Program-made: the position numbers and the translations under genes
DNA from: a virus
Lineage: Duplodnaviria > Caudoviricetes
Length of the DNA: 64,000 bases
Strand: one strand, 5' to 3'
Virus record (IMG/VR): IMGVR_UViG_3300032233_002657
Span: 96,001-160,000 of that record
Shown: positions 460 through 60,251 of the stretch, one piece after another
Layout: the number at the start of each line of letters is the position of its first letter
How positions within the stretch are numbered: position 1 is the stretch's first letter
The notes under the pieces: generated by a model
Databases searched by the model: none
What the model saw: only the letters and a program-made list of their open reading frames with translations
Told to the model about the DNA's origin: nothing

Positions 460-475
460 TTGGAGACGTCTCCAC
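460..475. repeat. Dispersed 16-bp palindrome, copy 1 (TTGGAGACGTCTCCAC, 15/16)
   Basis: Read directly from sequence; consensus GTGGAGACGTCTCCAC. Confidence 0.85.
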
Positions 476-529
476 TATAGTTTATAAGCGCTGAGCATTT
501 ATCGGCAACTGCCGACATAAAGGCTACGT

Positions 530-727
530 TCAGCAGCCAGACTGGCCTTTGTACCGCCACCTCTTTGTCTTGTTCTGAGGCGCCTCTGTAGCTGGCGCCT
601 CAGGCACAGCTTCAAGTTTTTTTGATGTAAAACTTGACACTGGCTTTTCTGTTAGTAAATCAAATGACGCTTTATCCAGCTTAGTAGTTTGATAAAGCAT
701 CAAGGTCGCTAAGGTTATGTACAGCAT
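530..727 (-). CDS. Small hypothetical protein
   Basis: Fills the gap in the minus-strand operon; hydrophobic N-terminus MLYITLATLML. Confidence 0.35.
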   Translation of the reverse strand: MLYITLATLMLYQTTKLDKASFDLLTEKPVSSFTSKKLEAVPEAPATEAPQNKTKRWRYKGQSGC

Positions 728-772
728 GGCCGGCCTTGCCTTGTGTGTCAAGGCTTTAGAGTTGTTAGTAAG

Positions 773-1708
773 TTACACCAACATAAACAGGGCTTTGTCT
801 ATCAGCTGCTCAGGGAACCCTTCAAAGTTGCTAAAAGCAAACGTTTCTTTGGCCCTGATATGCTTTTCAGCGTCTTTGCGCCTGACTCTTAGTACGCCTA
901 TAGGCAGATCAACTCCAGTGTCAAAGTCTTTAAGTTGGCCATGAGAATCTGCCCAGCTATTTAGAATAATAGCGTAAGGGTCTTTATCATTATCGTCCAC
1001 GCCGATAAAGCACATCTGATGACCCCAGTTATCTGTTTGTCTATGGAACCCGTCGTTAGCTGGTGTCATGCTGTAACCGATATCGCTAGCAGTAGTACAA
1101 GGGTAGCCATTAGATATGGCAGCTACTAAGTCGTCCCAGCTCCTAATTAAGGCTGCCGACTTTACTGGGTGCAGCTTACCCTCCTCTACAAACTTCTTAT
1201 CTGGTCCTGGGCTATCTCCCCACTTCTTAGCTACTTTTCCAGAATATTCTGGCACACCGCCAAAATTACTGCGAAGAACACCGTATTTAATAATAGCGTC
1301 TGCCATCCAGCTTCCCAAGGAGCCATCGTCACCATCGAATTGCCCTCCTCCGATAAGTACCCGCCCGGTGCCATAGAGATAAGGGGGGAATACTGGGTTG
1401 AATGCCTCCCTGTCACCCTTCATGAGCTTTTCGGTAGCCATTAAGTATTCACAAGCGTTCTTAGCTCCGAAGGACACGCAATCACCAATCTCTTGTGCGT
1501 AGTTCTCTGTGTCTTTACCTAGAAGCTTTCTTACAACTTCATACAGCATAGTCTTTCCACCCTTAGTGCTTCTTGTAGAGCTAAGGATGTTAAACTCTCT
1601 AAATGAACTTTTAAGAAGGTCGAATTGAGCTTCGACTAAGCCTGGGTTATCTTTGCCTACCCAGCCACCTTTAGCCCCGTCTTTGTATAGCTTTAGGATA
1701 TCGTTCAT
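773..1708 (-). CDS. Papain-like (C1 family) cysteine peptidase
   Basis: Catalytic motifs QEIGDCVSFG (Q...C), GHQMCFIG (H) and ILNSW (N). Confidence 0.8.
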   Translation of the reverse strand: MNDILKLYKDGAKGGWVGKDNPGLVEAQFDLLKSSFREFNILSSTRSTKGGKTMLYEVVRKLLGKDTENYAQEIGDCVSFGAKNACEYLMATEKLMKGDREAFNPVFPPYLYGTGRVLIGGGQFDGDDGSLGSWMADAIIKYGVLRSNFGGVPEYSGKVAKKWGDSPGPDKKFVEEGKLHPVKSAALIRSWDDLVAAISNGYPCTTASDIGYSMTPANDGFHRQTDNWGHQMCFIGVDDNDKDPYAIILNSWADSHGQLKDFDTGVDLPIGVLRVRRKDAEKHIRAKETFAFSNFEGFPEQLIDKALFMLV

Positions 1709-1718
1709 TTTATTTTCC

Positions 1719-2492
1719 TTATTTTACAGACTTAAGACCTGCTGCTACTTCTCTCCAAGCCTCAGCAAAATCTGTGGCTGTTACCATTTGCTTGCTTTCG
1801 TAAAGGGAGTAAAGCGTTTCCTGCATTTCTTTAAAGAAAGGTTCCCATGCAGTTTTGTTGGCGCCTACTGCTGCTCTGTTAGACTCAGCGGTCTTCTTTA
1901 AAAGCTCATCGACTTCCTTAATAGCTCCTGCAGCTACGGCTGATGCCATAGATTCAAAGGACTTTGCAACGGCTGTTGCAGATCCTTTACGAATAGCTGC
2001 AGGCACCTTATTAATAGCTAAGGAATAGGCTTTCTTTTGAAGGTTGTATCTAGCTTCTGGAAACGTAGGCTCAGGAGCTGATGGCTCTGGGTCTGGGCCT
2101 GGGTCTTCGCCAATGATAACTGGAGAAGATATAATAACAGTCTTGGTGACTATCTCTGATGTCTTGTCGCCTTCTTTGACAACGTAGAGATAAGTGATAG
2201 CTACCAGAGCAGTCATGCGCTTAGGGACAACCCCAGCTCCGAAGAAAATGCCGTCTTGGTATTCTCTTACTCTTTTTTCTTTATCCCCATCAAACACCTT
2301 CCAAGCAATGCTACAAGATACAAAATGCTTCGGTGGATCTTTGATAGGTGATACTGTGAGGTCCACCAGCTCCCCAAGGGGAACTGGGGACTCAGCTCCA
2401 ACAATCTTCTGCTGTGGGACCACAAAATCGGTCGCCAAGGAGCTGCTGGAAATTAGCATTGCAGCCAATAGGCTAAATAATATCTTGTTCAT
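1719..2492 (-). CDS. Exported protein with signal peptide
   Basis: MNKILFSLLAAMLISSSSLA signal peptide; beta-rich domain, PDPEP linker, helical C-terminal domain. Confidence 0.7.
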   Translation of the reverse strand: MNKILFSLLAAMLISSSSLATDFVVPQQKIVGAESPVPLGELVDLTVSPIKDPPKHFVSCSIAWKVFDGDKEKRVREYQDGIFFGAGVVPKRMTALVAITYLYVVKEGDKTSEIVTKTVIISSPVIIGEDPGPDPEPSAPEPTFPEARYNLQKKAYSLAINKVPAAIRKGSATAVAKSFESMASAVAAGAIKEVDELLKKTAESNRAAVGANKTAWEPFFKEMQETLYSLYESKQMVTATDFAEAWREVAAGLKSVK

Positions 2493-2501
2493 TGGATCCC
2501 T

Positions 2502-14222: not shown

Positions 14223-15448
14223 AAATTTGGCGACTCTGCCATAACTTGGAGCTTATCGCACAAAGACTGAAACTCAAAGTACGCGTGCCCAACTATGGAC
14301 CTTGTGCTTTCAAGAGGTATAAACGTATCGAGTACATAGTTTAAGAACGGCACGAGCTTGTCTTGAATTTGCTTATTGTTGGTACCTTCTATTTCAGCAT
14401 CTTCTAAAGTGGGAACTTCTATTTTTCCGTAGGTTATTGACTCTATACTTTCTAAAGACATCGCCATTCTGTAAGCTTGAAGGTTTCTCCAATAGAAATC
14501 AGTACCGCCAAGAACTTTAGTTTTGTAATCTCTCTGACCGTCTATTACTATTTGTCGGTAGGCTATATCTGATTCCTTACTAGTCAATGCCCTAAAGGTT
14601 ATTTTGTACTTATCCTTAAACATTAAGTACATTTTTTTAAACCTTATTCCACCTAGGATCGACTGAACAAAGTCTTCTTTATCGCTAGTGCTTGCTTCTG
14701 TTAGGTCTTCCTTCTTTAAATCCCATCCGCAATGCTGACAGTTAGGTAGAAGGTGGACAGGGCTGTGATCTGCGTAAGACTGAGTTGCAGTGTAAGGAAC
14801 GTACTTAGGAGGCTCTGGCTCATCGGGCTGAGGTGAAGGCCTAGCCGCTTCAGCAGCTGGGCTCTTTATGTCGTTTATAAACTTCAGGCCCCCGCCTTCT
14901 TCTTTTTCTACCTTTGGAGCAGATGCTTTAACCTCTGGGTTTGTGGAGACGTCTCCACTCGCCGGTGGTGTAGGCAGGACTTGAGTTGGTTTTTCACTTT
15001 CTACCTTAGGAGCTTCTTCTCTTACAATTGGCTTGAGGCCTTCAGGAAGAACCGGGGGCTTAAGGGCGTTTTTCTTATCTTTGGAAACTTTAACTGCCTT
15101 GTTGTGGGCGGCCCATAACTCTTTAACCATTTCCTTATCATCTGTTATCTGTTTTAAAAGAGCAAAGCCTTCCTCTATTTCTTTTCTCTGCTTAGAGGGG
15201 ATATTAGCTATATTAGTAGGCTGGCTAGTCTGCCTTAATATGCCTTCGTAAGCTTTCATATCCATCTCGGATACGGCTGCTTCTTCAGGAGGAGCCTCTG
15301 GAGTGTTCTTAGTGTAATTAGCTATCTCTTTATTAAGCTCATCAATCTTTCCTTCCTTCTGAAGGTTTAAAGCTTTTAACTCGAAGTCAGTTAAAGAAGA
15401 TGGTTTTGGTTTTTCTGCTAAAGGTGGATCCTTTTCTTTATCGCTCAT
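14204..15448 (-). CDS. Tail assembly chaperone (gpG-like) with a long Pro/Glu/Lys-rich N-terminus
   Basis: Upstream of the tape measure; KITFRALTSKE motif; slippery site at the 3' end. Confidence 0.65.
   Translation of the reverse strand: MSDKEKDPPLAEKPKPSSLTDFELKALNLQKEGKIDELNKEIANYTKNTPEAPPEEAAVSEMDMKAYEGILRQTSQPTNIANIPSKQRKEIEEGFALLKQITDDKEMVKELWAAHNKAVKVSKDKKNALKPPVLPEGLKPIVREEAPKVESEKPTQVLPTPPASGDVSTNPEVKASAPKVEKEEGGGLKFINDIKSPAAEAARPSPQPDEPEPPKYVPYTATQSYADHSPVHLLPNCQHCGWDLKKEDLTEASTSDKEDFVQSILGGIRFKKMYLMFKDKYKITFRALTSKESDIAYRQIVIDGQRDYKTKVLGGTDFYWRNLQAYRMAMSLESIESITYGKIEVPTLEDAEIEGTNNKQIQDKLVPFLNYVLDTFIPLESTRSIVGHAYFEFQSLCDKLQVMAESPNFWKAIE
14222..14228 (-). other. Programmed -1 ribosomal frameshift heptamer AAATTTT
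   Basis: In-frame CCA AAT TTT TGG; a -1 shift gives AAA TTT TTG GAA AGC GAT, the frame of ORF 13926..14222. Confidence 0.75.
14943..14958. repeat. Dispersed palindrome, copy 2 (perfect GTGGAGACGTCTCCAC)
   Basis: Read directly; inside a CDS, encodes GDVST. Confidence 0.9.
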
Positions 15449-22706: not shown

Positions 22707-22903
22707 ACTTTCTTGCCTTTATTCATAAAACTAAAATCAGGCTGCTGATAAGAAACTATCTTAGGCATCTCTATCTCTTTATTTTTAGGAGTGGAGACGT
22801 CTCTACTAATACCGCCGTGAAACTCTTTAACGTGATTTGCCATCTTATCAAAAGGTGAGTCATCAAACATCGACCCTTTGTCCATCATTCCTTTTACCAT
22901 CAT
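22703..22903 (-). CDS. Small hypothetical protein
   Basis: ATGA overlaps with both neighbours. Confidence 0.55.
   Translation of the reverse strand: MMVKGMMDKGSMFDDSPFDKMANHVKEFHGGISRDVSTPKNKEIEMPKIVSYQQPDFSFMNKGKKV
22791..22806. repeat. Dispersed palindrome, copy 3 (GTGGAGACGTCTCTAC, 15/16)
   Basis: Read directly. Confidence 0.85.
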
Positions 22904-30524: not shown

Positions 30525-31961
30525 TTAAGCAAGTTGGTTGTAAGCTACAACCGCTCGGCCATAATGGTATTCTTGAGATTTATCTGCAGAAGCAGCCTTT
30601 AACCACTGTAATTGGTGCATGGCATATGCCTTGGCCAAGTCTTCGTGCTTGGAAAAATCTTCTGCATATTTTTCAAGATTTTTTAGAACTGGGCGGGAAG
30701 ACAGGCCAGATATCACGGCTGACCTAACTCCTATCTCCACACTTCTTACATCTACAGAGTGAGCACTGGCGAACTTAATAGCTTCTGAGTGCTGTCTCTC
30801 AGTAGATATAGTCTTAGATGGATCGGTGGATCTATCGCTAGCTAGCTTTTCAATAGTGGAGACGTCTCCAATCAATTTAGTAAACACATTAGGGAGATGG
30901 CGCTTAACTTCAGCTGCTATTTTTTCTTGGCCTTTAGCTGATAACCAGTCTTCCAAAGATACAAGAATACCTTGCTTAGCGCATGCTGCCCAAGGGTAGA
31001 TCCCGTTTATGGAGCTTTGCTTCCAGAAAGGAAGAGGCTTTACTCTTGCAGATACAACTGCCATAAGGACTGGGCTGCACACTCCAGCTGATTTCTCTAA
31101 GTTAGATAAACTTCTAGCTATCTCAGCTAGTTTTACGGAGCCTTCAGAAAGATCACCGGATAGTATGCTGTCCGATGCTCCTACTCCAGCTAACTCAGCA
31201 AGTTCTGCTCCGCCTACTACGCACAAGCCAGAGGCAGCTTTATAATGACCAACTACCCAGGCTATTCGGTCGGCTGGGCGGTAAACGTCGCTTATGTCGA
31301 ACCAAGTCGGGTTCGGGTTATCAACATGAAGAACGTGGCCGTCTTCTGCAACTTTAGTAAGGTTAAATTTGCAACCGCCGTACTTGCACATATCTTCTGT
31401 GCAGTACTCATCTCTATTCTTTGCTTTATTGCCGCATCCGGAACACACATCATGGGAAACTCTGCAGGCCATGCTTACGCCCCAGTTGTCATCCCCCGAA
31501 GCTATCTTCTGCATTTCTTTATCGGCTACTAATCCTTTATTTCGATCTGCTGCTTCCTTAGTAGCGTTAAGAGCTACGATGAGCTCTACTCGTTTCATCT
31601 TATCGTTGAACATGGAAGCCTTAACCATACCGTAGCTTTTTTCAGTGTCTTTGTTTTTGTGGTTTCTGTACCACCGAGCGTGCTTAACAAAAGTGTCATG
31701 GTACTTACGGCAGGTGGCTTCTTTAAAGCCGTCACCGTTGCGGTTAGGGCCGTATGCCTCTGTAGAACCTATAGCAATCATATGAATGGGTTGTTCGCCT
31801 GGCTTAAACTCTATTCCCCTAAGGAGGTGAGCAGCTTCGTCTCCAGCCCTCTTTACAAATGAAGAAAGATCGTGACCAACCAATCCTTTGGAGGATACTT
31901 TAACTATAGAGCTAACGGAGTCTCCGAAGCTCTGCGAGTTAGGGGCTATGATCTTAATCAT
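30525..31961 (-). CDS. Putative prohead (maturation) protease
   Basis: GPNRNGDGF, YRNH and VSMAC...CSGCG motifs resembling large-phage prohead serine proteases; C-terminal half rich in K-x-A. Confidence 0.6.
   Translation of the reverse strand: MIKIIAPNSQSFGDSVSSIVKVSSKGLVGHDLSSFVKRAGDEAAHLLRGIEFKPGEQPIHMIAIGSTEAYGPNRNGDGFKEATCRKYHDTFVKHARWYRNHKNKDTEKSYGMVKASMFNDKMKRVELIVALNATKEAADRNKGLVADKEMQKIASGDDNWGVSMACRVSHDVCSGCGNKAKNRDEYCTEDMCKYGGCKFNLTKVAEDGHVLHVDNPNPTWFDISDVYRPADRIAWVVGHYKAASGLCVVGGAELAELAGVGASDSILSGDLSEGSVKLAEIARSLSNLEKSAGVCSPVLMAVVSARVKPLPFWKQSSINGIYPWAACAKQGILVSLEDWLSAKGQEKIAAEVKRHLPNVFTKLIGDVSTIEKLASDRSTDPSKTISTERQHSEAIKFASAHSVDVRSVEIGVRSAVISGLSSRPVLKNLEKYAEDFSKHEDLAKAYAMHQLQWLKAASADKSQEYHYGRAVVAYNQLA
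30856..30871. repeat. Dispersed palindrome, copy 4 (GTGGAGACGTCTCCAA, 15/16)
   Basis: Read directly. Confidence 0.85.
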
Positions 31962-38251: not shown

Positions 38252-38623
38252 TTATCTAGGGCGCATGTTTAGTATGTTCCTAGAAATACTTCCACTTTTT
38301 AACAAGTCTATAACAATAGCCAGCTTTTCGTTCGTAGCCATCTTAGCATGTTCTTTACCGGATGTGGGAGTGGAGACGTCTCCACTAGCCGCCGATACAG
38401 CCGCAGCCTGATTGCTTACTGGGGGGAGCGCATTAGATGGAGAAAAAGCTGCCGGCATAGTATTCATAGATTTTATAGGTGAATTTGTAGAGCCTACGCT
38501 TTTAAGGTCGGATATTGGTGCGGAGGCCTGAGGGCCGGTTAGCTTGGGAAGAGTTAAATCCTTGGAAGCACTTACAGAGTTGTTTCCAGACCAGTTAGCC
38601 CATTTATATATGAACGCGCTCAT
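38252..38623 (-). CDS. Low-complexity hypothetical protein
   Basis: Ser/Ala/Pro-rich; abuts the RNAP beta' C-half gene. Confidence 0.5.
   Translation of the reverse strand: MSAFIYKWANWSGNNSVSASKDLTLPKLTGPQASAPISDLKSVGSTNSPIKSMNTMPAAFSPSNALPPVSNQAAAVSAASGDVSTPTSGKEHAKMATNEKLAIVIDLLKSGSISRNILNMRPR
38370..38385. repeat. Dispersed palindrome, copy 5 (perfect; extends to 18 bp AGTGGAGACGTCTCCACT)
   Basis: Read directly. Confidence 0.9.
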
Positions 38624-45637: not shown

Positions 45638-48600
45638 TTACCCTACTATTACGACTTTATCGTTTGCGGATATTTCGCCTGCCTTGTAGGCACGTACGGC
45701 GTCCATCTTTGTTTTGAAGTATTTTTCAGGTCGCTTAGACGCTTCAGAGGTAGCCGTGTACAGCCCACCCTGGTACTCGTTCATAGGAAGCTGATGAACT
45801 TTGAAGTTTTTTACGGCAAGAAGATTACGGCTGGGTAGCATCTTTTCTAAAGCATCTTTAACAGACTCATCAGTTGTGGGCACATGGTAGTTCATGGCGT
45901 CGCCATCAAAGTCTGCTCCGAACCCTTTAACTATAATAGGAGGAACTTGAAGAGTACTTCCTTTAACAAGCTGAGGCCTAAACGCCATAACCCCGTAACG
46001 GTGAAGCACTGGAGCTCTTGTTATGATTACAGGTCGAGCATCCATTTCTGCAAGCATTGCATCCATGGCCATCTTGTCTTTACTTTCTATAAGATCGGCT
46101 GCTTTAAACCGATCCACTCCTCGTCGAATAAGCCTTCTCATGATAAAGGGTTTATACACAGCCCAAGCTCTGTCTTCCGGAAGGCCAACTTGATCCATGT
46201 CTAAGTCTGGGTTTGGAGTAATAGCCGCTCGGCCAACCATGTCCACGTTAGAGGCTAACAGCTTTCTTTGAAGCACTCCAAACTTAGGGTTATCTCCAAA
46301 TACTTGTTTTAATATTCCTTTTACGTTCTTTTGTTCTAGCTTAGGGTTACTAGTATCGGCCATGCCGGTTACGCCCTTGAAAGAGTCGTATACAGCCAGT
46401 CTATGATCTGACAAATCTGTAAAATGGTTGGATGCTTCCTTCATCTCAGAGTTAGAATCTATGAGCTCCTTATAAAGGTAGTTAGCATCTCCTACCATAG
46501 GAAGGCCGCTGCTCTGCATTATGCTGACTGGCCTAAACAAAGGAGGAAGCACTGGCACTTTATCAAGAACCCAATCAGAGGGGTGCATTCCCAGATCCTT
46601 AGACGTTTTAAGATACCCTAGCTTTCTAACAGCTGTGTCTCTGTAAGACTTTTTACCTGACGCTATCTGCGCTCTAGCTTTTAGTATCTCCTGATCGACG
46701 TTCATCTTTTTAAGGGCCCCAGATATAGCTCCTGGCCCTTTAATTCCATTTAGCTCTTCTCTGCCCGCTAGCACATCCCTAAACTTATTCTCTGTTAATC
46801 CTAATACTCTGCGTATGGGCTCTTCCATAACTGGATTAGGCATAGGTTCATGCAGCTTTATGTGGCTCCACATAGTGCCGCCGTGGCCACCAGTTAAAGT
46901 AGGGTCAAACAGGCCCCCGCCTACAGGCTTCATGCTGCCAGACCAATCAACTGTATCTGATCTTGTAATCTCTCTAGTACCAGACAAAGAATCGACGTCT
47001 GCGCTGGTCATAGCCATAAGCTGCGTCTTAGAACCTTTACGCACAGGGTTGATTCCGGCTGCCTGAAGCTGGGACATGAATTTACGATAGGTCAAAGGAA
47101 CTCTTGGTATGGGCAGAGGCTTACCAGTCATGAACGCAGCCCAGTAGTCTTCGTTTTTCTGACCTCGAATAGCTCCTGCATCTCTTAATACTTCGTGGGC
47201 TCCGTGAGAAAGAAGCGCGTTGACGTCCATAAGGGCCATACGCTTTGATCCTGTCTCTCCACCTTTAGCAGGAGTTTCTTCAGCTGTGTACCCGCTGGAT
47301 ACTCCTCTACCTTGGCCTTTTGATTCAGAGGTGTGATGCAGCTTCATAAAAAATCTGTTACCAGTGAATATACCTTTTATCTTTCTCCCAGTGTCGGGGT
47401 CTTCTATATCTTCCATATCGCTTAGATTATGCTTCTTTAGTTCGTTGATCGCATACTCTGTAAGATCCTCTATGTTATCAAAGTCTTTTACGGCATACCT
47501 TTTACCCGTCTTCTCGGATATCTTGCCTAAAGCAGCTTCCACCATTTGGCCAGGGTTTGTACGAGTGATGATACCTAAGGGATTGAGCAGAACCTCAAAA
47601 GGTCTGCCGTCCGCTCCTTTAGGCATTTTGTCGTCTGGGACTACGGTGGATATTACACCTTTGTCGCCGTATCGTCCTGACAGCTTATCCCCTTCCTTCA
47701 TAGGGACAAGACTTTTTACACTTACTGCATAACCTTTCTTAGTAGCAGTAACATCGGTGACTATTCCCTCATTCTCGTGATCCCAAGTTACGCTGGCATC
47801 GTTAAAGCCAGTCCTAGATCTACCCACTTGTTGATTGTGCGCTCTAGATAATATGTTGGCTTGGAATATTAAAGGGTCGCCGGTTCGTACGACGGTGCCT
47901 GGCTTAACTACTCCATTGTCATCCATGTTGCCTACATGTTCTTTGGTGTAGTTAGAAGGGAACAACGTAAGAAAAGCTCTTTTGCCTTGCTTAGTGTCTG
48001 GGCCAAACTCAGTTTCATGCTGGTACATATGCTCTGAAGTAAGCCTTTTTGCTGCCCCTTCTGATATGACTATGGCATCTTCAAAGTTGAAGCCTTTATA
48101 AGGTATGTAGGCAGTTCGTAAGTTAGTACCTAAAGCAGTAGTACCTTTATCATCGGTGTAGTTTGACTTAGCCAGAAGGTCGCCTTTGCCGACTACGTCC
48201 CCAACAGACACTGAAGGCGTGTTGTGAAGAAACGTCTTTCTGTTAAACGGAAGATTGTTATAAAGCTCGGTCTTATGAAGCTGGCCATCTTCTCCGCGTA
48301 TGTGAATCTCGTCCCCGTCAACCTTTATGACTTGGCCCGCGTTCTGAGATCTAACTGCGCCCATATGAGAGCCATACTCTTCTTCGTATGACTTATCTTC
48401 TTCATCGGGCATACCAGATTGGACGTAAGGCGACTGAGGGTTCTGCAAGGGCAGGGCCTGAGTAAGCATTCTCGCGCCCATCATTACGCGCTGGCCTTTA
48501 GTGGCGCTTTTTAAAGGTATAAGATTAGCCAATTGATTAAACGAGCTTTCCATTCTGGGTAGCTCATAGGCTACTTCGTCCCTGTTGACGTATTTTATTT

Positions 48601-50092
48601 TACCGCCTGAAAGAGCCGCTATTTTAATGTTATTAGGGTCTCTTAGCTGATTAGGGAATGCTACTATCTCCTTGGTCATTTCTTCTGGAGTTCTCCACAC
48701 ATCCTTATTAGTGGAGACGTCTCTAAAGCTGCCGTACACCTTACCATCTAAACCTTTACGGGAGTTGATGGCGATGCGGCTGTCCACGCCTACCTTTAAT
48801 GACTCTGGAGTAAGCAGAGGGTCAATAAACCCAAAGTGAGAAGGCTGCACGTTTCTAGCTTCTTCAGGAACTGACTGCAGGGATGGTATACCGCCTTCAC
48901 CTAGTCTGGTTACTCTTGTAATTTGATTTAGTAAATCAGCTGGATTTACTTCCTCAAGAGGCTGCCCCATTCCGCTGGTAGAGATAGCTCCGTTTACATG
49001 GGAGTCTAGAAACCCAGGGGAGAACGAGCTTAAATTTTGCTTGAAGCTAGCCTTCCAAAGCAGAGGTCGCATAACTCTGTGAGAGGACCTAACTCTTTCA
49101 GAGAATAAATCTTCAGGCCCTATCATCGATTGATAGGCCATGGCATCTCTGTCGTCTGGGTCTGACTCTCTTCTGTGAACAGCTAATATCTTTTTAGTTG
49201 CAGCTAGAATTGAGTCGGCTGAGACATTCTTATACGGCTGCCCAAGAGTTTTAAAATTAACGTCGGGGTCCATCTCCATTTTGGCTATGGCGTCTAATAC
49301 AGACTGCTTTCTGCTTTCTGGAGTAACTATGTCGCCTGGTTTAGACTTACCGATCTTACTAAATATCTTTTCCATGTGCTGCGGGTCATCAGTGGAGGCA
49401 TTAGAGTTATATATGTCATTACCCCAAGCTTCCCGTAGCTGCTTATCAGACGCCCCTAAAGCTTTTAGAAGAGGAGTTATGGGTACAGACGACTGTCCAA
49501 ACTTTATAGAGAATACGCCCTTTTCCGGATCCAGCGCATATTTATGGGATGCTCCTTTTCCCGGCATAATGTTAGCGTGGCTTTCAACTTCGCCGCTGTG
49601 CGTTATTCTTGTAAAGACTCCAGGCTTAAGCCTCATTTGATTGGCTAGAGTGTATTCTGTGCCGTTAAGAATGAAAGTACCTCTATCAGTGAGATAGGGT
49701 ATTTTAGCCAAGGTTGTTCGTTTGCTTTCTATGATATCGCCGGTAACACTGTCTGTGAGGTTAAGCGTGCCTTTAAGGCTTCTGTTTAGCGTCTGGCCTT
49801 TAAGTATAGCTTCCTTCTGCGCTTTTATAGATTTGGTTTCTTCGTTGTCGCCCCACCCTACATCTGTAACACTAAGCGTGTGCCTTTGATTTACAATAGG
49901 TTCAAATTTAGAGGCAGTGGCTAGAACCCCGCCAAATATAGCGGATCTAGTAGCTTTCATGTCGTCAAACTTACGCATGGTTGGGTCAGCCATGGGCGCA
50001 AGCGGCATGGGCGCAAGCTTTGGCGGCGAGCTCAGCGCAGGAGTTGAAAGAACTCCTAAAGAGCTATCGTTATCTGGTAGAACTCCAGCCAT
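45638..50092 (-). CDS. rpoBC: Phage RNA polymerase: beta subunit fused to the N-terminal half of beta'
   Basis: Beta motifs GTFILNGTEY, HFGFIDPLLTPES, GFNFEDAIVISE, GDKLSGRYGDKGVIS, LLNPLG; then beta' motifs VPVLPPLFRP, RAPVLHR and catalytic GADFDGD. Confidence 0.92.
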   Translation of the reverse strand: MAGVLPDNDSSLGVLSTPALSSPPKLAPMPLAPMADPTMRKFDDMKATRSAIFGGVLATASKFEPIVNQRHTLSVTDVGWGDNEETKSIKAQKEAILKGQTLNRSLKGTLNLTDSVTGDIIESKRTTLAKIPYLTDRGTFILNGTEYTLANQMRLKPGVFTRITHSGEVESHANIMPGKGASHKYALDPEKGVFSIKFGQSSVPITPLLKALGASDKQLREAWGNDIYNSNASTDDPQHMEKIFSKIGKSKPGDIVTPESRKQSVLDAIAKMEMDPDVNFKTLGQPYKNVSADSILAATKKILAVHRRESDPDDRDAMAYQSMIGPEDLFSERVRSSHRVMRPLLWKASFKQNLSSFSPGFLDSHVNGAISTSGMGQPLEEVNPADLLNQITRVTRLGEGGIPSLQSVPEEARNVQPSHFGFIDPLLTPESLKVGVDSRIAINSRKGLDGKVYGSFRDVSTNKDVWRTPEEMTKEIVAFPNQLRDPNNIKIAALSGGKIKYVNRDEVAYELPRMESSFNQLANLIPLKSATKGQRVMMGARMLTQALPLQNPQSPYVQSGMPDEEDKSYEEEYGSHMGAVRSQNAGQVIKVDGDEIHIRGEDGQLHKTELYNNLPFNRKTFLHNTPSVSVGDVVGKGDLLAKSNYTDDKGTTALGTNLRTAYIPYKGFNFEDAIVISEGAAKRLTSEHMYQHETEFGPDTKQGKRAFLTLFPSNYTKEHVGNMDDNGVVKPGTVVRTGDPLIFQANILSRAHNQQVGRSRTGFNDASVTWDHENEGIVTDVTATKKGYAVSVKSLVPMKEGDKLSGRYGDKGVISTVVPDDKMPKGADGRPFEVLLNPLGIITRTNPGQMVEAALGKISEKTGKRYAVKDFDNIEDLTEYAINELKKHNLSDMEDIEDPDTGRKIKGIFTGNRFFMKLHHTSESKGQGRGVSSGYTAEETPAKGGETGSKRMALMDVNALLSHGAHEVLRDAGAIRGQKNEDYWAAFMTGKPLPIPRVPLTYRKFMSQLQAAGINPVRKGSKTQLMAMTSADVDSLSGTREITRSDTVDWSGSMKPVGGGLFDPTLTGGHGGTMWSHIKLHEPMPNPVMEEPIRRVLGLTENKFRDVLAGREELNGIKGPGAISGALKKMNVDQEILKARAQIASGKKSYRDTAVRKLGYLKTSKDLGMHPSDWVLDKVPVLPPLFRPVSIMQSSGLPMVGDANYLYKELIDSNSEMKEASNHFTDLSDHRLAVYDSFKGVTGMADTSNPKLEQKNVKGILKQVFGDNPKFGVLQRKLLASNVDMVGRAAITPNPDLDMDQVGLPEDRAWAVYKPFIMRRLIRRGVDRFKAADLIESKDKMAMDAMLAEMDARPVIITRAPVLHRYGVMAFRPQLVKGSTLQVPPIIVKGFGADFDGDAMNYHVPTTDESVKDALEKMLPSRNLLAVKNFKVHQLPMNEYQGGLYTATSEASKRPEKYFKTKMDAVRAYKAGEISANDKVVIVG
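48711..48726. repeat. Dispersed palindrome, copy 6 (GTGGAGACGTCTCTAA, 14/16)
   Basis: Read directly; inside the RNAP gene. Confidence 0.75.
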
Positions 50093-52894: not shown

Positions 52895-54190
52895 TTAGTG
52901 CCCGAACAGGCCCGGCACTATGGTTTTTATAGCCCCAGCCATAATCCCAGCGTTCTGTAATGTACGCTGCGCCTGAGGGGTAAGCCCAGCCAAAGCTCCA
53001 AGGACTTTACCGCCAATGGTTGCCTGTGCATAGCCCGCTCCCATTCCTATTCCTATTTTAGCTATGTCCATGGGGGTTATGAATCCTGAGCTGCCGTTGA
53101 GAGTATTAGCTGCCCCTACGATACCCATTGTGGCGGCTTGCATGCTTGAAGAAGAGAACGGGTCGCCCATGACTACTCTGTTAAAGGCATCCACAGGAAT
53201 AGGGGCTAAGTAAAGAGAGTCACTGTTGCCAAAGAAGTCGGCTGCCTTCTTCATCTCGTCAGAAATCTGTGGCTGTATATCTGACAAAGAGTCAGAGGCT
53301 TGTTTTAAATTAGAGTTACCAAATAAGACGTTTGGTCTTATAAAAGAGTTAAATGAGGTTCTGTGCCTATCTGGGTTAGATGGGTCGTCCCAATTAGACA
53401 TGCCTACGCCGCCTAGCGCAGCCCCAGGCAGAGCTCCTAACGCTCCTCCAAGTACAGCTAGCCTTTTTCGAAGCTTCCCCTTTTCAAAGACCTCAGGGGC
53501 AAACGTTTCAGCCAAAGCACCTGCTCCGTACCCTAGACCCGCAGTTAAAGCTCCACCGGCTATCATAGATGCCAACGGAGTGGCTCCGCCTATGGCGTCG
53601 GTAAAACCAGATGGCTTTATCGCAAATGCCTGAGCCATCGGGCCAGCTACACTTGATATGGTTGTAGCAGACTTCACTAGTATCCAAGGGCGGTTTAAGT
53701 TAGGGCGCCCTATCTTATGATGAATTCCATTTTTCTCTAAAACTGTGGAGACGTCTCCACTCGGAATGGCTCCATAATCGTCCACTAAAACCTTGTCGTT
53801 TAATGGGCTTACCCAAGCTCGCATATTTGGAAGAAGCGCCCTTGCAACCTTTTCAAAAATAGATTTTGCAGCTGATGTGTAAGTGTTGACAAGCTCAGGC
53901 ACATAGCTCCAGGATAAATCTGATGAAATTTTATTTAAGGCTTCTTGCCTCTTTATCGTATAAGGGATAATATCTCTTGGAGCGTGGACTTTGAATGATG
54001 TAGGCACGTGCGTAACTCCCACAAATTTCTTGTTAAGATCGGAATCTATGAGGAAATCTTCAGGTCTGCTCATAAACAGATTCCTTAATATTTTGTTCTT
54101 CTCATGATAATTTTTACCGTCCGACATGGCTTTTGCTTGCAACAGCAAATGAAGGTCGGCTTTGGGGTTGCGTTCTACCTGTGGCTGCAT
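52895..54190 (-). CDS. K-x-A / glycine-zipper membrane-type protein
   Basis: GGAGG RBS before the ATG at 54190; VKSAT, LKQAS, KKAAD; several GxxxG hydrophobic segments. Confidence 0.65.
   Translation of the reverse strand: MQPQVERNPKADLHLLLQAKAMSDGKNYHEKNKILRNLFMSRPEDFLIDSDLNKKFVGVTHVPTSFKVHAPRDIIPYTIKRQEALNKISSDLSWSYVPELVNTYTSAAKSIFEKVARALLPNMRAWVSPLNDKVLVDDYGAIPSGDVSTVLEKNGIHHKIGRPNLNRPWILVKSATTISSVAGPMAQAFAIKPSGFTDAIGGATPLASMIAGGALTAGLGYGAGALAETFAPEVFEKGKLRKRLAVLGGALGALPGAALGGVGMSNWDDPSNPDRHRTSFNSFIRPNVLFGNSNLKQASDSLSDIQPQISDEMKKAADFFGNSDSLYLAPIPVDAFNRVVMGDPFSSSSMQAATMGIVGAANTLNGSSGFITPMDIAKIGIGMGAGYAQATIGGKVLGALAGLTPQAQRTLQNAGIMAGAIKTIVPGLFGH
53745..53760. repeat. Dispersed palindrome, copy 7 (perfect)
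   Basis: Read directly. Confidence 0.9.
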
Positions 54191-54296
54191 TACAAAATCC
54201 TCCACCCCGATAGTAACAACTATTAGCTCTTCAAGCCATAGTTGATACTGTGTATGCAGGAATTACTTAACTTAGGTGAAATAGGAGATTCAGTAA

Positions 54297-56558
54297 ATGG
54301 TCCCAGTTAGCAAAAAAAGTACAAGTGTAGGCGTAAAGAAAGTAGAAAAAAGAAACGGTAGTGTAGATGACTTTGATGTGCAGAAAATAGCATTAGCTAT
54401 AGAGCGCTGCTTTAAGAACGGCCTTCAGAGCACTGATGAAGAAGCTCAGGTAGCCGGAATTAAAGTTTCAAAGGCAGTTGTCAACATTCTTAATAAAAGG
54501 GTCGACGAAGAAGTCATAACCGTAGAAGCCTTGCAGCGTCTTGTGATTCAGCAGCTTTGGGCTTTAGGTCACTTCGAAGCCGCAGAGCAATATACTCTGT
54601 TTAAAGAAAAAAGAAGGCAAGAAAGAATAGCTCACCCAGTTGACGCTGAGCTTAGAAAGTTAGTGGAAGAGGATTCTGTATATTTTCCATCTGCGCTTCA
54701 GTACTACCAGTTCATTAGCAAGTTCTCCAAGTGGGACGAAGTCCTAGGCAGAAGAGAGACATGGGGAGAGTGTGTTAATCGAGTTATGAACTTCTTTACC
54801 AAGCAGACCTTTGGTGAAAAGCTTACTAAGATAGAAATAAAAGAACTTAGAGAGTCACTTCTTAAGATGGACGCTACTCCAGCCATGCGAGTTATTCAGA
54901 TGGCAGGGCCCGCGCTAGACCGTTGCCATGTAGGAGTTTACAACTGCAGCTACATGCCTCTATGCGACATACGATCTTTTAGTGAACTGCTATATATTCT
55001 TATGCAGGGCACTGGGGCTGGGTTTTCCGTAGAGCGTAAGTATGTTGAACAACTTCCAGCTGTAAGAAGGCAGATAGGAAAGCCTCCAGCAAAAATGGGC
55101 GTCATGGACACCACCGAAGGTTGGTGCGATGCTCTGTTCGCAGGAATGGATGCTTGGTTCAACGGTAAAGATATAGAGTTTGATTTTAGTAAAGTAAGAC
55201 CAGCTGGCGCTAGGCTAAGCATCAAAGGCGGAAGAGCTAGCGGGCCTGGGCCTCTAAAAGATTTGCTTCAGTTTGCTAGGACTCTTATTCTGTCTAGACA
55301 GGGTAGGTCATTGTCTGACATAGACTGCCATGACCTAGCGTGCATGACTGGAAAAATAGTTCAGGTAGGCGGAGTTCGCAGAGCCAGTGAGATATCCCTC
55401 AGCGATCTTGATTCTGCAGAGATGAGAGGAGCTAAGTCAGGTCCTTGGTGGCAAAACTCTATTCATCGGTCTATGGCTAATAACTCTGCTGTTTATAACG
55501 TTAAGCCTAACGCTATAGATTTTATGGATGAGTGGCTTTCTTTAGCAAAGAGCGGCTCTGGAGAAAGAGGAATATTTAACCGAGACGGAGTTCTTAGAAG
55601 TCTTCCAGAAAGAAGGCAGCAAAAAGACTTCGGTACAAATCCCTGCGCGGAGATTATTTTAAGGCCTTATCAGTTTTGTAACTTATCTATCGTTGTAGCA
55701 AGAGAGAACGATACGGTAGAAAGCCTTAAGCGCAAAGTAAAAGTAGCCGCCATCTTCGGCACTATGCAGAGCTGCCTTACTGACTTCAAGTACATTCGTA
55801 GGGAATGGAAAGATAACTGCCAAGAAGAAAGATTACTAGGGGTGGACATTACAGGACAAATGGACTGCCCGCTTTTGAGGCCTGGCGCTGAAGGCAGGGA
55901 CGAGCTTCTTAAAAAGTTAAGGGCCATAGCTGGAAAGACAAACGCCGAATACGCTGAAAGGTTTGGTATAAACAGGTCTGCGTCGGATACCTGTGTAAAG
56001 CCGTCTGGGAATAGTTCAGTGATGTTTGGCTGCTCTTCTGGTATACATGCCAGGTTTGCATCCCACTACGTACGCAGAGTTAGGGAGCGCGCGGACAGCC
56101 CTGTAGCTCATATGCTAGTCGATGCAGGGGTTCCTTGGATTCAAGCTCCTGAAGATCCTTCGCTTATATGCTTTGAGTTTCCTTGCGCTGCTCCAGCAGG
56201 GGCTGTAACAAAGGATGACCAAACAGTAATAGACCAATTAGACAACTGGTTATGCTGGAAGAAGAACTGGGCAGAGCACTCTGTATCCGCAACCATTTAC
56301 GTTGAGCCAGAAGAGTGGCTGACTGCAGGCCACTGGGTATACGAAAACTTTGACGCTATATCTGGGCTTAGTTTTCTTCCTAGGGATAACGGCACCTACA
56401 CCGGAACTCCTTACGAAGAGATAACGGAAGCGGAGTACAACAGCCGAGTGGAGACGTTTCCAAAGGTAGACTGGGCTAAGCTCTCTAGGTATGAGAAAAC
56501 TGACCACACTGAGTCAGCTCAAACCTACGCCTGCACCAGTGGCGGATGCGATATGTAA
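54297..56558 (+). CDS. nrdJ: Class II (B12-dependent) ribonucleotide reductase with N-terminal ATP cone
   Basis: VEKRNG ATP cone, RRETWGE, YNC, GTGAGF, GGVRR, TNPCAEI, VKPSGN, C-terminal CTSGGC; no NrdB adjacent. Confidence 0.88.
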   Translation: MVPVSKKSTSVGVKKVEKRNGSVDDFDVQKIALAIERCFKNGLQSTDEEAQVAGIKVSKAVVNILNKRVDEEVITVEALQRLVIQQLWALGHFEAAEQYTLFKEKRRQERIAHPVDAELRKLVEEDSVYFPSALQYYQFISKFSKWDEVLGRRETWGECVNRVMNFFTKQTFGEKLTKIEIKELRESLLKMDATPAMRVIQMAGPALDRCHVGVYNCSYMPLCDIRSFSELLYILMQGTGAGFSVERKYVEQLPAVRRQIGKPPAKMGVMDTTEGWCDALFAGMDAWFNGKDIEFDFSKVRPAGARLSIKGGRASGPGPLKDLLQFARTLILSRQGRSLSDIDCHDLACMTGKIVQVGGVRRASEISLSDLDSAEMRGAKSGPWWQNSIHRSMANNSAVYNVKPNAIDFMDEWLSLAKSGSGERGIFNRDGVLRSLPERRQQKDFGTNPCAEIILRPYQFCNLSIVVARENDTVESLKRKVKVAAIFGTMQSCLTDFKYIRREWKDNCQEERLLGVDITGQMDCPLLRPGAEGRDELLKKLRAIAGKTNAEYAERFGINRSASDTCVKPSGNSSVMFGCSSGIHARFASHYVRRVRERADSPVAHMLVDAGVPWIQAPEDPSLICFEFPCAAPAGAVTKDDQTVIDQLDNWLCWKKNWAEHSVSATIYVEPEEWLTAGHWVYENFDAISGLSFLPRDNGTYTGTPYEEITEAEYNSRVETFPKVDWAKLSRYEKTDHTESAQTYACTSGGCDM
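56448..56463. repeat. Dispersed palindrome, copy 8 (GTGGAGACGTTTCCAA, 14/16)
   Basis: Read directly; inside nrdJ. Confidence 0.7.
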
Positions 56559-58094: not shown

Positions 58095-58108
58095 AGAGAC
58101 CATGGATT

Positions 58109-58288: not shown

Positions 58289-58336
58289 AAGCGCTCCTTC
58301 GCTAAGAGGTAAAAATGAACCATCGTGGTCCATCTA

Positions 58337-58367
58337 ATTATGACTCTATTTACGAATGAATTAAGCT
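58337..58367 (-). promoter_or_regulatory. Putative phage promoter, copy B
   Basis: Minus strand AGCTTAAT-N8-AAATAGAGTCATAAT, with a -10-like CATAAT. Confidence 0.5.
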
Positions 58368-58433
58368 AACCCTGCATATCTATATAAGTGATAAAATAGT
58401 ACATTATTACGAAACCTATATGGAGTCGAGAAT

Positions 58434-59090
58434 ATGCAAAGATTTGTAGATATTGTAACTTCCCTTCTGTGCCCACCTGTATTGAAGAGAAACCCAGCTT
58501 CATGGCTAAAGGACCCAGCCCTTATAGAAATGTATACTGGCACTGAAGGAGCTCATAATAGCCCAGACCCAGTAGAGTGCTGGATGCTGTATAACCTAGC
58601 CAAGCTAGCGCCAAATAATGTTTTAGAGATAGGGTCGTGGAGAGGGAGAAGCTCAGCTTTTCTAGCTAAGGGGATAAAAGACAGTAAAGACGCTCACACG
58701 AATAAAGAAAGAAGATTAGCCTGCCTTGACTGGTTCATCGGAGATAAGACCGGAGGGTCTTCTCCAGATAAGTTTATTATGCTCAAGTCTCTGATTAAAT
58801 TTGATGTCAACGCCTTAGTAGATATCTATGACCAGAACATGCTAGAGTTTGATTTCGCAGGTAAGGCACAGAACGTAGATCTAGTCTTCTACGACGCAGA
58901 TCACAATACAGAACCAACTAAGGCAGTTCTTAATGCTATACACCCAGTTCTTAATCCTGGGTGCATAGTCACGATGCACGACGCTAACTGGAATATGACT
59001 AGAAAAGCCATCTACGACCTAAGCGAAAAGTACAAGCACATAGGCACTCTCAACGTTTGGGAAGGGTTTGCAATACTTGCAAAGATATAA
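58434..59090 (+). CDS. Class I SAM-dependent methyltransferase (Methyltransf_24-like)
   Basis: VLEIGSWRGRS, DLVFYDADH, LNPGCIVTMHD. Confidence 0.8.
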   Translation: MQRFVDIVTSLLCPPVLKRNPASWLKDPALIEMYTGTEGAHNSPDPVECWMLYNLAKLAPNNVLEIGSWRGRSSAFLAKGIKDSKDAHTNKERRLACLDWFIGDKTGGSSPDKFIMLKSLIKFDVNALVDIYDQNMLEFDFAGKAQNVDLVFYDADHNTEPTKAVLNAIHPVLNPGCIVTMHDANWNMTRKAIYDLSEKYKHIGTLNVWEGFAILAKI

Positions 59091-59092
59091 AC

Positions 59093-59527
59093 CTACCCGT
59101 CCCAGCCTACCCACTGCTCAGTAACACCTTGAAAATCTGTAGACAGCCTGTAGGAATCACTGTCGAAGTGCTCCGTGGATGTTTCAAATATAACAGAGTC
59201 CTCTACCCCGTAGAACTGGTGCACACTTCCCGGCTTAATGTGCCAAGCCTGCCCTGGGTGAAGAGTTTCCTGCAACTTAGGAACGTCAAAGGCTACACTA
59301 CCTACTGCGATAGTAGTAGCCTCGCTCTGCTCAGCGTAAACTATTATCACCTTACCAGAGAGGACTACGAAAGTTTCCTCTTTAAGCTTGTGATAGTGAA
59401 AGCTGCAGAACATGCCTTTGTTTATGTGCAAAAACTTACCGCAGTACTTATTCGTATTTACTACCCATATCTCCCTGCCCCATGACTTAGGGACATAGGT
59501 CATAGAGGTCACTAGTCCACTGTCCAT
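59093..59527 (-). CDS. Cupin (sugar isomerase-like)
   Basis: VPKSWGREIW...CSFHYHKLKEETF...IKPGSVHQF; start uncertain (59527 or 59551). Confidence 0.75.
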   Translation of the reverse strand: MDSGLVTSMTYVPKSWGREIWVVNTNKYCGKFLHINKGMFCSFHYHKLKEETFVVLSGKVIIVYAEQSEATTIAVGSVAFDVPKLQETLHPGQAWHIKPGSVHQFYGVEDSVIFETSTEHFDSDSYRLSTDFQGVTEQWVGWDG

Positions 59528-59531
59528 TTGA

Positions 59532-60182
59532 TTACCTTTTCCTTTCTTCATCCTTGATCGCTGTAATAATAGACAGCAGTGAAGGATGCCGTACAATCAT
59601 ACTTTCATCAAACCTTACATACCCTACGCAGTCTAGATTTTCAAGGCAATTAGTAAAACTCTGCAGAGAGTTTTTAAACTTAAGATCACTCTGGTCAGGG
59701 TCCCCACATATGATGAGCTTACCCCCTTTACCTAACCTAGTGATAAATAGCTTAAGCTGTTCCCATGTGCAGTTCTGAGCTTCATCGAGAATGGCGACAC
59801 AATCATCAAAGGTTCTACCCCGCATAACTGCCAAAGGAATAATCTCCATAGATTTCATTACTTCCTGAGGGTTAGTGGTGGTTATTCTTCTAAGTACGTC
59901 CTCAATAGGAGCTACCCAAGGGGCTAGCTTCTGATTGATGTCGCCAGGAAGAAAGCCTAGCTTTTCTCCGCACTCAACCATAGGTCTTGATAGAATCATC
60001 CTACGGCATTTTCCGTTTAGATATGATGTTAGAGCTAACTTTACTGCTTGATGCGTTTTGCCTGTTCCTGCAGGCCCTAAAAGAAATATTACGTCCTTCT
60101 TATTAAATATCTTCTCTGACTCTCGCTGTGCCTCATTTATGGGTAAAAGTACGGGGTTAAGGTCCTTAGGCAATTTAGCCAT
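59532..60182 (-). CDS. phoH: PhoH-family ATPase
   Basis: GPAGTGKT, LGFLPGD, MRGRTF, DEAQN, GDPDQSD. Confidence 0.92.
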   Translation of the reverse strand: MAKLPKDLNPVLLPINEAQRESEKIFNKKDVIFLLGPAGTGKTHQAVKLALTSYLNGKCRRMILSRPMVECGEKLGFLPGDINQKLAPWVAPIEDVLRRITTTNPQEVMKSMEIIPLAVMRGRTFDDCVAILDEAQNCTWEQLKLFITRLGKGGKLIICGDPDQSDLKFKNSLQSFTNCLENLDCVGYVRFDESMIVRHPSLLSIITAIKDEERKR

Positions 60183-60235
60183 TTTTACTCCGACCGGGTA
60201 TTAACCCGGCTATGGGTTACACCGAACTACCAACA

Positions 60236-60251
60236 TTGGAGACGTCTCCAC
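60236..60251. repeat. Dispersed palindrome, copy 9 (TTGGAGACGTCTCCAC, 15/16), intergenic
   Basis: Read directly; upstream of phoH. Confidence 0.85.

Follow-up and report, generated by a model that had tools for sequence, protein, structure and literature searches.

The question addressed here is why a 16-bp palindrome, GTGGAGACGTCTCCAC, is written through unrelated genes in a 64,000-nucleotide stretch of viral DNA (the window), which comprises bases 96001-160000 of the viral record IMGVR_UViG_3300032233_002657 (G000; linear, 181,489 bp, 88% complete) and derives from an uncultured freshwater phage of about 200 kb. The copies of this palindrome are under purifying selection at the DNA level, they occupy positions that are deeply conserved with local turnover, and they are specific to a phage lineage. 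The explanation that best fits these observations, to which a probability of roughly 0.55 is assigned, is that the palindromes would be evenly spaced docking sites on duplex DNA for a symmetric dimer, together covering the whole chromosome; we infer from sequence comparison the protein dimer as reader, its being encoded by the phage, its binding to the sites, and chromosome-wide coverage as the purpose.

A search of the window for GTGGAGACGTCTCCAC with at most two mismatches returned nine copies (three perfect, four with one mismatch and two with two mismatches), which exactly reproduced the positions and mismatch counts given in an initial annotation of this DNA. That the copies are beyond chance, as had been claimed, agrees with their complete absence from 100 dinucleotide-preserving shuffles of the window. 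If no more than one mismatch is allowed in the 12-bp core, the whole record contains 21 copies, to which two weaker ones can be added, and relatives carry 11-26 core copies per contig, against 0-1 for a reversed-pattern control. The conserved footprint is symmetric and extends over 18-20 bp, reading (T)A-GTGGAGACGTCTCCAC-W(A) when oriented by the sense strand of the gene, with (TA)GTGGAGAC as the half-site; the oligonucleotide form of the palindrome, as duplex or hairpin, is TAGTGGAGACGTCTCCACTA. The flanks of the copies in the window have nothing in common beyond one or two bases, and the base composition near the sites is slightly AT-richer, within 20 bp only. The information content of the motif is far more than is needed for uniqueness within 200 kb.

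The same motif is present on eight related contigs that represent at least five distinct phage lineages, and the 16-mer is found without mismatch in a small number of large contigs from uncultured viruses. G001 (92% complete) and G002 are syntenic with G000 at ~70% nucleotide identity, and G005 is syntenic at 87% identity, while G011 and G013 belong to more distant lineages with a median protein identity to G000 of 53-56%. Two near-complete relatives, G008 (100%) and G010 (90%), of which the RNA polymerase is 51-58% identical and the median proteome identity is ~33%, are without the motif. Comparison of the RNA polymerase gene by blastn with a phage collection returned no annotated relative, and a literature search on the motif sequence itself retrieved only unrelated MamK matches, probably primers.

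Genome-wide, 16 of the 21 copies lie within open reading frames (ORFs) and five are intergenic. All three reading frames are used, giving GDVST-type, VETSP-type (six copies) and WRRLH (two copies) peptides, and several copies sit within Pro/Ser/Ala-rich linkers. Within genes the relative position of the copies ranges from 0.12 to 0.95, gene starts not being preferred. Non-coding DNA holds 22-43% of the copies and accounts for 6-8% of the sequence, which amounts to a three- to five-fold enrichment, although most copies are still intragenic; the intergenic copies fill the short spacer from a stop codon to the next ribosome-binding site. When synonymous codons were shuffled 200 times with the proteins and the per-gene codon usage kept fixed, 4.6 of 19 copies survived, about four of which are the untouched intergenic ones, and among the coding copies about 0.6 of 15 survived. 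The copies are thus in clear excess over codon-preserving controls, a comparison that the initial annotation had proposed. That annotation had read six of the copies in the window as [G/R]DVST (14943, 22791, 30856, 38370, 48711 and 53745), one as VETFP (56448) and two as intergenic (460 and 60236), all of which is correct, and had placed the constraint on the DNA, in which it is borne out by the use of all frames and spacers, by the destruction of the sites in codon shuffles and by the persistence of the 16-mer beyond that of its flanks. A constraint on GDVST at the peptide level is ruled out by the three-frame and intergenic use and by the loss upon codon shuffling.

Comparison of orthologous sites points in the same direction. 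Over 24 site pairs, identity between genomes is 0.94 in the 16-mer and 0.92 at the next base (+17), against 0.79 at the preceding base and ~0.70 in the flanks, and at orthologous positions every base of the 16-mer is retained, the end variants TTGG... and ...CCAA among them. Many copies in G011 and G013 are found at exactly orthologous positions in surrounding proteins that are just 33-70% identical. Orthologues that keep the peptide while the DNA of the palindrome is scrambled were not encountered. Half-sites were also considered as a separate oriented signal, and were rejected as such: their 4-fold excess over a Markov model comes with a strong strand bias and reflects mostly codon usage, and under codon-aware shuffles the half-sites outside full copies number 9-11 versus 5.3-6.8 (P 0.07-0.09).

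Motif residues align without gaps to ordinary residues in the motif-less orthologues of G008 and G010, for example WRRLH to WVRRQ, LETSP to IETAT and IGDVST to VSSSDL, and the copies therefore arose from point substitution at already-close codons and not from cassette insertion; an inserted 18-bp cassette of six codons is ruled out, since there are no gaps at the sites. The same alignments bear on the notion that the palindrome is a selfish miniature element that a transposase disperses, as RAYT/HUH enzymes do with REP sequences. The co-occurrence of a dispersed palindrome with a possibly HUH-like gene (see below) would suit that notion, as would three intergenic copies in G001 that flank strain-specific accessory genes, but substitution in place of insertion largely refutes it, and the conservation of positions over deep divergence, the even spacing and the predominance of intragenic copies, where REPs are extragenic in the description given of them in PMC3479197, make it extremely unlikely.

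The three intergenic copies in G001 (106711, 107241 and 109366; locus L058) each follow a TAA on the plus strand and stand around accessory genes of 129, 136, 265, 105 and 122 amino acids, and the equivalent copies of the sister contig G003 enclose other genes.

Local turnover is visible at individual positions. A copy at the junction of the SNF2 and RNA polymerase genes is present in G001 and G002 and missing from G000, in which the weak copy at 48711 lies 3.1 kb from the junction copy of the relatives; this looks like local turnover that was compensated. Likewise, G011 and G013 have a copy in the tail of a Rep-like gene, in place of which G000 and G001 have one at a distance of 1.2-2.4 kb.

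The symmetry of the site fits recognition on duplex DNA. Its central ACGT is self-complementary, which a hairpin loop would not need. Among 66 site families, variants at the outermost position affect neither, one or both halves in 32, 28 and 6 families, as compared to 32.1, 27.9 and 6.1 expected under independence, and among the changes at positions 2-15, 25 affect a single arm and 0 are compensatory double changes, with the commonest internal variant leading to A.C in the sense RNA and not to G.U. Because the half-sites vary independently and compensatory changes are lacking, a symmetric dimer on duplex DNA is favoured over a hairpin, and this pattern of variation speaks against RNA or single-strand hairpin models. 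The dimer would have two-fold symmetry and would bind with one subunit per half-site. The dimeric reader with a chromosome-wide role that had been proposed at the outset is in this respect upheld in its core by the independent half-sites and the genome-wide conserved positions, the protein dimer itself being deduced; the segregation, tethering, ejection or protection suggested along with it would be possible purposes.

An RNA hairpin in long one-directional transcripts, acting as a signal for processing, stabilisation or anti-termination, would profit from the location of nearly all genes on one strand, by which every copy is transcribed, and the sequence can indeed form a 6-8 bp stem with a 4-nt loop. 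Such a role is nevertheless highly improbable given that neither compensatory nor wobble-biased changes occur (0 versus 25 single-arm changes), that stem and loop sequences are both invariant across lineages, and that the loop is self-complementary, for which a hairpin loop has a 1-in-16 chance. Moreover, most copies lie within translated ORFs, and no Rfam family matches the window.

Besides their symmetry, the copies are characterized by their spacing. The coefficient of variation of the gaps is 0.46-0.59 in five genomes versus 0.94-0.96 when copies are placed at random (P ranging from below 0.0001 to 0.017), and the pooled gap histogram has its mode at 7-9 kb, where 27 of 75 gaps are found. 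The largest gap in G001 is 15.1 kb versus a random median of 25.5 kb (P=0.007), and the corresponding test in G006 gives P=0.012. Even spacing suggests a function that requires coverage of the whole chromosome and not of a single locus, and, together with the selection that holds 18-20 bp inside unrelated genes, it implies that this function is important and has a range of about 4 kb on each side. The sites, one per 7-8 kb along the chromosome, would not be operators of particular genes, and each would serve a limited surrounding stretch that reaches roughly 4 kb in both directions. Such an arrangement would be expected of landing or loading pads, from which a factor might spread, slide, bridge or act locally, for example by marking or organising the phage chromosome.

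The nine copies in the window, with the genes in which or between which they lie, are the following.

460..475, sense minus: copy TTGGAGACGTCTCCAC with 1 mismatch, intergenic, 8 nt upstream of the ATG of ORF 77-451 (124 amino acids, with a transmembrane segment) and 54 nt past the stop of ORF 530-727.
14943..14958, in ORF 14204-15448, minus strand (414 amino acids, no Pfam match): perfect copy, read as SGDVST in a Pro/Ser/Ala-rich linker; SGDVST also in G001 and G002, with an alignment gap in G006.
22791..22806, in the small ORF 22703-22903, minus strand (66 amino acids): copy GTGGAGACGTCTCTAC with 1 mismatch, read as SRDVST; orthologous copies in G001 and G002.
30856..30871, in ORF 30525-31961, minus strand (478 amino acids): copy GTGGAGACGTCTCCAA with 1 mismatch, read as IGDVST; aligned gap-free to VSSSDL or VERGDL of motif-less orthologues.
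38370..38385, in ORF 38252-38623, minus strand (123 amino acids): perfect copy, read as SGDVST.
48711..48726, in the fused beta/beta'-N RNA polymerase gene 45638-50092, minus strand: weak copy GTGGAGACGTCTCTAA with 2 mismatches, read as FRDVST; specific to G000.
53745..53760, in ORF 52895-54205, minus strand (about 431 amino acids): perfect copy, read as SGDVST.
56448..56463, near the 3' end of a class II ribonucleotide reductase-like gene 54297-56558, plus strand: weak copy GTGGAGACGTTTCCAA with 2 mismatches, read as VETFP; also present in G006, not found in G001 or G002.
60236..60251: copy TTGGAGACGTCTCCAC with 1 mismatch, intergenic, directly past the stop of ORF 60253-60966 and followed after 54 nt by the PhoH-like gene 59532-60182; kept in G001, G002 and G005.

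Among the gene names that had been attached to these copies, those of the RNA polymerase and the ribonucleotide reductase were recovered with Pfam, whereas those of the chaperone and the protease had no Pfam match, nor had any other motif-bearing ORF of the window.

The intergenic copies raise the possibility that a phage regulator, or a sigma-like factor and RNA polymerase of the phage itself, uses the sites as operators or promoter-type elements, by which a genome that runs in one direction would be split into units of expression. A multisubunit RNA polymerase and a Sigma70_r3-like protein are encoded (the Sigma70 region 3 match lies within the gene set at window 77-42053), intergenic copies stand 8-16 nt upstream of start codons, and the motif-less relatives G010 and G008 have other, promoter-like repeated motifs. 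Against this, about three quarters of the copies are intragenic and scattered along their genes, the site is without orientation though 187 of 208 ORFs in G000 run one way, on the minus strand (by a crude gene call), and the intergenic copies merely fill very short spacers, so that an operator function is considered improbable. An autoregulated DNA-binding gene beside the intergenic copies was also looked for, and the downstream genes turned out to encode the transmembrane protein, PhoH and an acidic 81-amino-acid protein.

The repeated motifs of the two motif-less relatives are of different kinds. G010 (IMGVR_UViG_3300022723_000184, loci L093-L103; GC content 62.5%) has its own AT-rich palindrome of ~22 bp, ATCTAAAAAGTACTTTTTAGAT, for example at 10520, 103643, 144100 and 185327, in 15 copies with a coefficient of variation of the gaps of 0.46, and thus likewise more even than random placement would give; 9 of the 15 are intergenic, usually 4-30 nt upstream of a start codon. 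Judged by sequence and position, it could serve as a promoter or operator, or be the functional equivalent of the array. G008 (IMGVR_UViG_3300044712_001462, loci L111-L122) has an oriented, non-palindromic motif, CTCTnTAGCGATAACA, which occurs 10 times in both orientations, for example at 26648, 109582, 172066 and 218141, and looks promoter-like.

A class of host sites is ruled out as the origin of the motif: the exact 16-mer has 72 scattered matches in 185,579 prokaryotic genomes (one per species, 596 Gb), which is fewer than the rough chance expectation of ~140, and only one genome has two copies. That the motif is not a prokaryotic-genome site would suit Chi-like but bidirectional self-marks for repair or recombination, at which a processive nuclease or helicase changes its behaviour, with phage DNA being spared or recombined and unmarked host DNA being degraded. 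Dense and even coverage with selection against long gaps, and an information content well above what uniqueness requires, would likewise be expected of such marks, and SbcCD-like proteins, a RuvC-like resolvase and a clade-specific SNF2/ResIII helicase fusion are encoded. The breakpoints of genome mosaicism that coincide with sites, 2-3 versus 0.5-1.4 expected per genome pair, could be added to this list, but the enrichment is weak (P 0.02-0.3), comes each time from two intergenic sites and is in part an artefact of the alignment, which also leaves just a weak signal for the sites as boundaries of mosaic cassettes. Chi sites, moreover, are short, asymmetric and read on single strands, and no RecBCD/AddAB-type enzyme was found, by which self-marking of this kind becomes distinctly unlikely.

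The palindrome contains GACGTC as well as two head-to-head CGTCTC, and might therefore be the target of a DNA modification or restriction enzyme, either a methyltransferase or a rare cutter, of the phage or of the host. Type II recognition sites are typically perfect palindromes with a CG centre, and several S-adenosylmethionine (SAM)-methyltransferase folds are encoded. However, no N6_N4_Mtase, DNA_methylase, D12 or Dam match was obtained with Pfam in about 190 ORFs, the methyltransferases found are generic small-molecule or sugar types, and the only restriction-type nuclease match is one small HNH that is also present in the motif-less G010. GACGTC outside the motif is at about chance level (11 copies versus an estimated 12 or so expected), phages usually lose restriction sites rather than keep them, and modification explains neither the even spacing nor the positional conservation. 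This explanation is considered very unlikely.

The proteins that might read the site were surveyed by Pfam and PHROGs. Those with functions in replication and nucleic-acid metabolism include a family-A DNA polymerase with a domain like uracil-DNA glycosylase, a DnaG primase, helicases, SbcCD-like proteins, a RuvC-like resolvase, the small HNH, a sigma-70 region-3-like protein and PhoH; the other proteins found comprise an asparagine-synthase-like enzyme, MoxR/VWA proteins, a terminase ATPase of the lambda type, glycosyltransferases and generic SAM methyltransferases. The gene for the HNH (window 23709-24083, minus strand, 124 amino acids, near the head-gene region) was rejected as the reader in view of its presence in motif-less G010, and an ESM-atlas search with a basic 351-amino-acid protein gave scores at chance level.

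Three of the proteins in this survey deserve description in their own right. The SNF2/ResIII-type helicase (window 42146-45634, minus strand) has 1162 amino acids, with ~700 residues beyond the helicase, and its gene lies between two RNA polymerase genes; it occurs in the motif-bearing clade only, being 79-81% identical in G001 and G002 and without a match in G008 and G010. The family-A DNA polymerase (genome 18223-21117, minus strand, locus L200) carries an N-terminal domain of the uracil-DNA-glycosylase superfamily (PF03167, E 4e-13). The RuvC-like Holliday-junction resolvase (genome 4963-5604, minus strand, locus L073) was recognised by phrog_159 (E 5e-16) and missed by Pfam; it is also limited to the motif-bearing clade, in which it is 66-75% conserved.

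Phylogenetic profiling yielded about 70 ORFs that occur in motif-bearing genomes and not in G008 or G010, among which one is put forward as the candidate reader.

Genome 36220-36996 (locus L074:16217-17032), outside the window, minus strand: candidate reader, 259 amino acids from the likely start, basic (isoelectric point 10) and Cys-rich.

All motif-bearing contigs that extend over the locus of the candidate gene contain it (G000, G001, G003, G005, G011, G013 and G014), and it is missing from the motif-less relatives, including G008 and G010; the contigs of G002 and G006 do not cover the locus, which makes the absence of the gene there uninformative. Its homologues are confined to this phage group, and the distant Rep-like homologues P0016, P0018, P0021 and P0022 are on contigs of 1.5-4 kb, too short for a test of the array. 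The family alignment shows an invariant C-x5-C-x2-CW-x4-C, which is probably a zinc ribbon, and has a C-terminal R-x-Y-G-x-F-Y; some other Cys, Tyr and Glu residues are invariant as well. The protein has no Pfam match and no PDB sequence match with a Rep-like profile. Its look-alikes in the ESM atlas are rolling-circle initiators of the Rep_1 family (PF01446), with a score of 0.95 and 185 of 256 features. A confident AlphaFold model based on 21 sequences (predicted local distance difference test, pLDDT, 91; predicted template modelling score, pTM, 0.89) has as its best fold-search match the HUH region of a Helitron transposase, with a weak Z of 3.3 over 140 residues, other Reps scoring Z 2.2-2.8, and Foldseek returned nothing for this model at E<=0.001. 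The residue H173 (in LVVHS) is invariant in the close clade only, with VYP, VFR or AYK in the wider family, and the His of the would-be HUH motif is therefore not conserved beyond that clade; neither Tyr of R-x-Y-G-x-F-Y is invariant in the family, in which Y73 and Y193 are. On these results the protein is at most a possible member of the HUH superfamily. The identification of this protein as the reader is a lead, with a chance of roughly one in three. More tentative than the docking sites themselves is the possibility that the array and the candidate family constitute a new, ParB-independent whole-chromosome system, in which a loader with a novel and possibly HUH-derived fold would act at palindromes about every 8 kb. 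If that holds, the loader could organise domains, provide a self/non-self mark during the breakdown of host DNA, condense the chromosome prior to packaging, or support multiple starts of replication or recombination.

The resemblance to Rep proteins underlies the main rival explanation, by which the sites are processed by a site-specific nuclease, for example the Rep/HUH-like candidate acting on an extruded hairpin or cruciform, giving rise to regular nicks or to starts of strand-displacement or recombination-dependent replication. The nicked genome of phage T5 is a parallel for regularly spaced nicks. Besides the Rep_1 look-alikes, HUH nucleases recur near the top of the fold searches (the Helitron transposase at rank 1, SIRV1 ORF119, nanovirus and Vientovirus Reps, and RepB), the RuvC-like resolvase and SbcCD-like genes of the clade could process branched or broken DNA, and the single-stranded 20-mer folds to an 8-bp hairpin, albeit of just -5.8 kcal/mol. 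In addition, several lineages have a copy of the palindrome inside the last 22-62 nt of the candidate gene, in two frames, reading GDVST in some and VETSP in others. A tie between the palindrome and the 3' end of this gene was rejected, however, as the copy represents one conserved array position among many and is lost in G000. The structural matches are all weak even with a model of this quality (Z 3.3 or lower), the sequence searches against Pfam and PDB were empty, the His to be expected of an HUH nuclease is not conserved in the wider family, and neither Tyr of the C-terminal Y-x3-Y is invariant. Furthermore, the stem is not kept by compensatory changes, a spacerless palindrome of 16-20 bp extrudes poorly, and contig ends are not at sites. 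Processing by a Rep-like nuclease is consequently rated as unlikely.

Several results weigh against the interpretation of the palindromes as docking sites for a phage-encoded dimer, or against the candidate as that dimer. A strict periodic lattice was not detected, the Rayleigh test being not significant and borderline in G006 only, and the spacing takes the form of a preferred distance instead. In G000 a single gap of 25 kb extends across a variable region in which giant genes lie, and the maximum-gap test for this genome is not significant; this site-free stretch (genome 66792-92269), the only long one, ends 3.7 kb before the window and contains genome-specific ORFs and a giant gene of 2468 amino acids, with just a half-site (76711) and a 3-mismatch copy (89878). 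A hairpin in which a protein recognises the bases of the stem would also be compatible with the lack of compensatory changes. The expected kinds of reader were not found either. ParB_N (PF02195) had no match at E<=1 in six frames of G000, G001, G006, G008 and G010, a search in which 11 of 14 control genomes matched, although a gene in the missing part of G000 (88% complete, against 92% for G001) is possible; the kinship with parS/ParB that the initial annotation had drawn thus found no support in these five genomes. The DNA methyltransferase, helix-turn-helix and ribbon-helix-helix families, which that annotation had named next to ParB as proteins to search for, were likewise without a match by Pfam and PHROGs in the about 190 ORFs, many of which are matchless altogether. 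With respect to the candidate, its phyletic pattern is also that of at least 30 further genes within the first 70 kb, and it evolves fast, with 29-31% identity between lineages of which the proteomes are about 55% identical, which is unexpected for the reader of an invariant site.

Large phages have to replicate, transcribe, protect and package 200 kb in a hostile cell, and cis-acting signals that operate on the scale of the whole chromosome are almost unstudied in them. Moreover, a site of high information content that is absent from hosts, together with its reader, could serve as an orthogonal pair for DNA targeting.

Known systems offer several comparisons. Cluster O mycobacteriophages carry 34 copies of an invariant 17-bp dyad-symmetric repeat, 5'-TGTTCGGNNNCCGAACA, within about 70 kb. 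The copies lie within ORFs as well as in the spaces that separate them, related phages have most of them at similar places, and host genomes lack the sequence; its function is unexplained, and the authors predict that a dimeric protein binds it for some purpose other than the initiation of transcription (Cresawn et al. 2015, PMC4351075). This repeat is the closest published analogue of the present array. Tens of copies genome-wide, both inside and between ORFs, a mostly absent association with promoters, shared positions with occasional point loss, and absence from the host are features of both. The Cluster O copies differ in being about 2 kb apart, in their 7+3+7 structure with a variable spacer, in their often intergenic location, in their concentration in one arm of the genome and in the presence of an encoded protein with a ParB-like domain. 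The array described here consists of a contiguous 16-20 bp palindrome, is four times sparser (about 7-8 kb) and evenly spaced, is intragenic for three quarters, comes without a detected ParB domain and is conserved more deeply. Of the two it is the cleaner case, since its sites are fewer and follow a clear spacing rule, sister phages without the motif are available for comparison and the list of candidates is short.

ParB-parS, Noc-NBS, SlmA-SBS and MatP-matS employ palindromes of 12-16 bp of the GTG...CAC type, often with a central CG, that are tolerated in genes, are read by dimers and organise a chromosome region. A palindromic site of ~16 bp with independent half-sites is a property that the array has in common with the ParB/parS class. 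These are host systems, however, with sites confined to chromosome regions, and the ParB, TetR and MatP families were not found here. Chi is a frequent mark of self of which the density matters over the exact position; it has 5-8 nt and is asymmetric, orientation-dependent and host-encoded. The array resembles it as a frequent and evenly needed self mark, and differs by the symmetry of its site and by its phage origin. REP sequences and the RAYT (TnpA-REP) HUH nucleases are portrayed, in the accounts given in PMC3479197 and PMC8266576, as extragenic, imperfect elements of 20-40 bp that form single-strand hairpins and are thought to transpose. A dispersed short palindrome and a possibly HUH-type protein encoded once per genome are the points of likeness with the present case, in which the copies are instead mostly intragenic, born by substitution and without covariation of the stem.

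The IncP plasmid RK2 contains about a dozen copies of the palindrome OB. KorB acts in this plasmid as a CTP-dependent sliding clamp that is loaded at the dispersed OB sites, as described for that system in PMC11790492. The array has in common with KorB/OB a single palindrome spread over a mobile replicon, with sites a few kb apart at which a dimer would load and then act at a distance. It differs in that KorB is a ParB-family CTPase, for which no ParB_N counterpart was found here, and in that OB is mostly associated with promoters and not written through coding sequence. The mechanism proposed for the palindromes nevertheless most resembles that of KorB/OB, and by analogy the array may work like that system without being a member of it.

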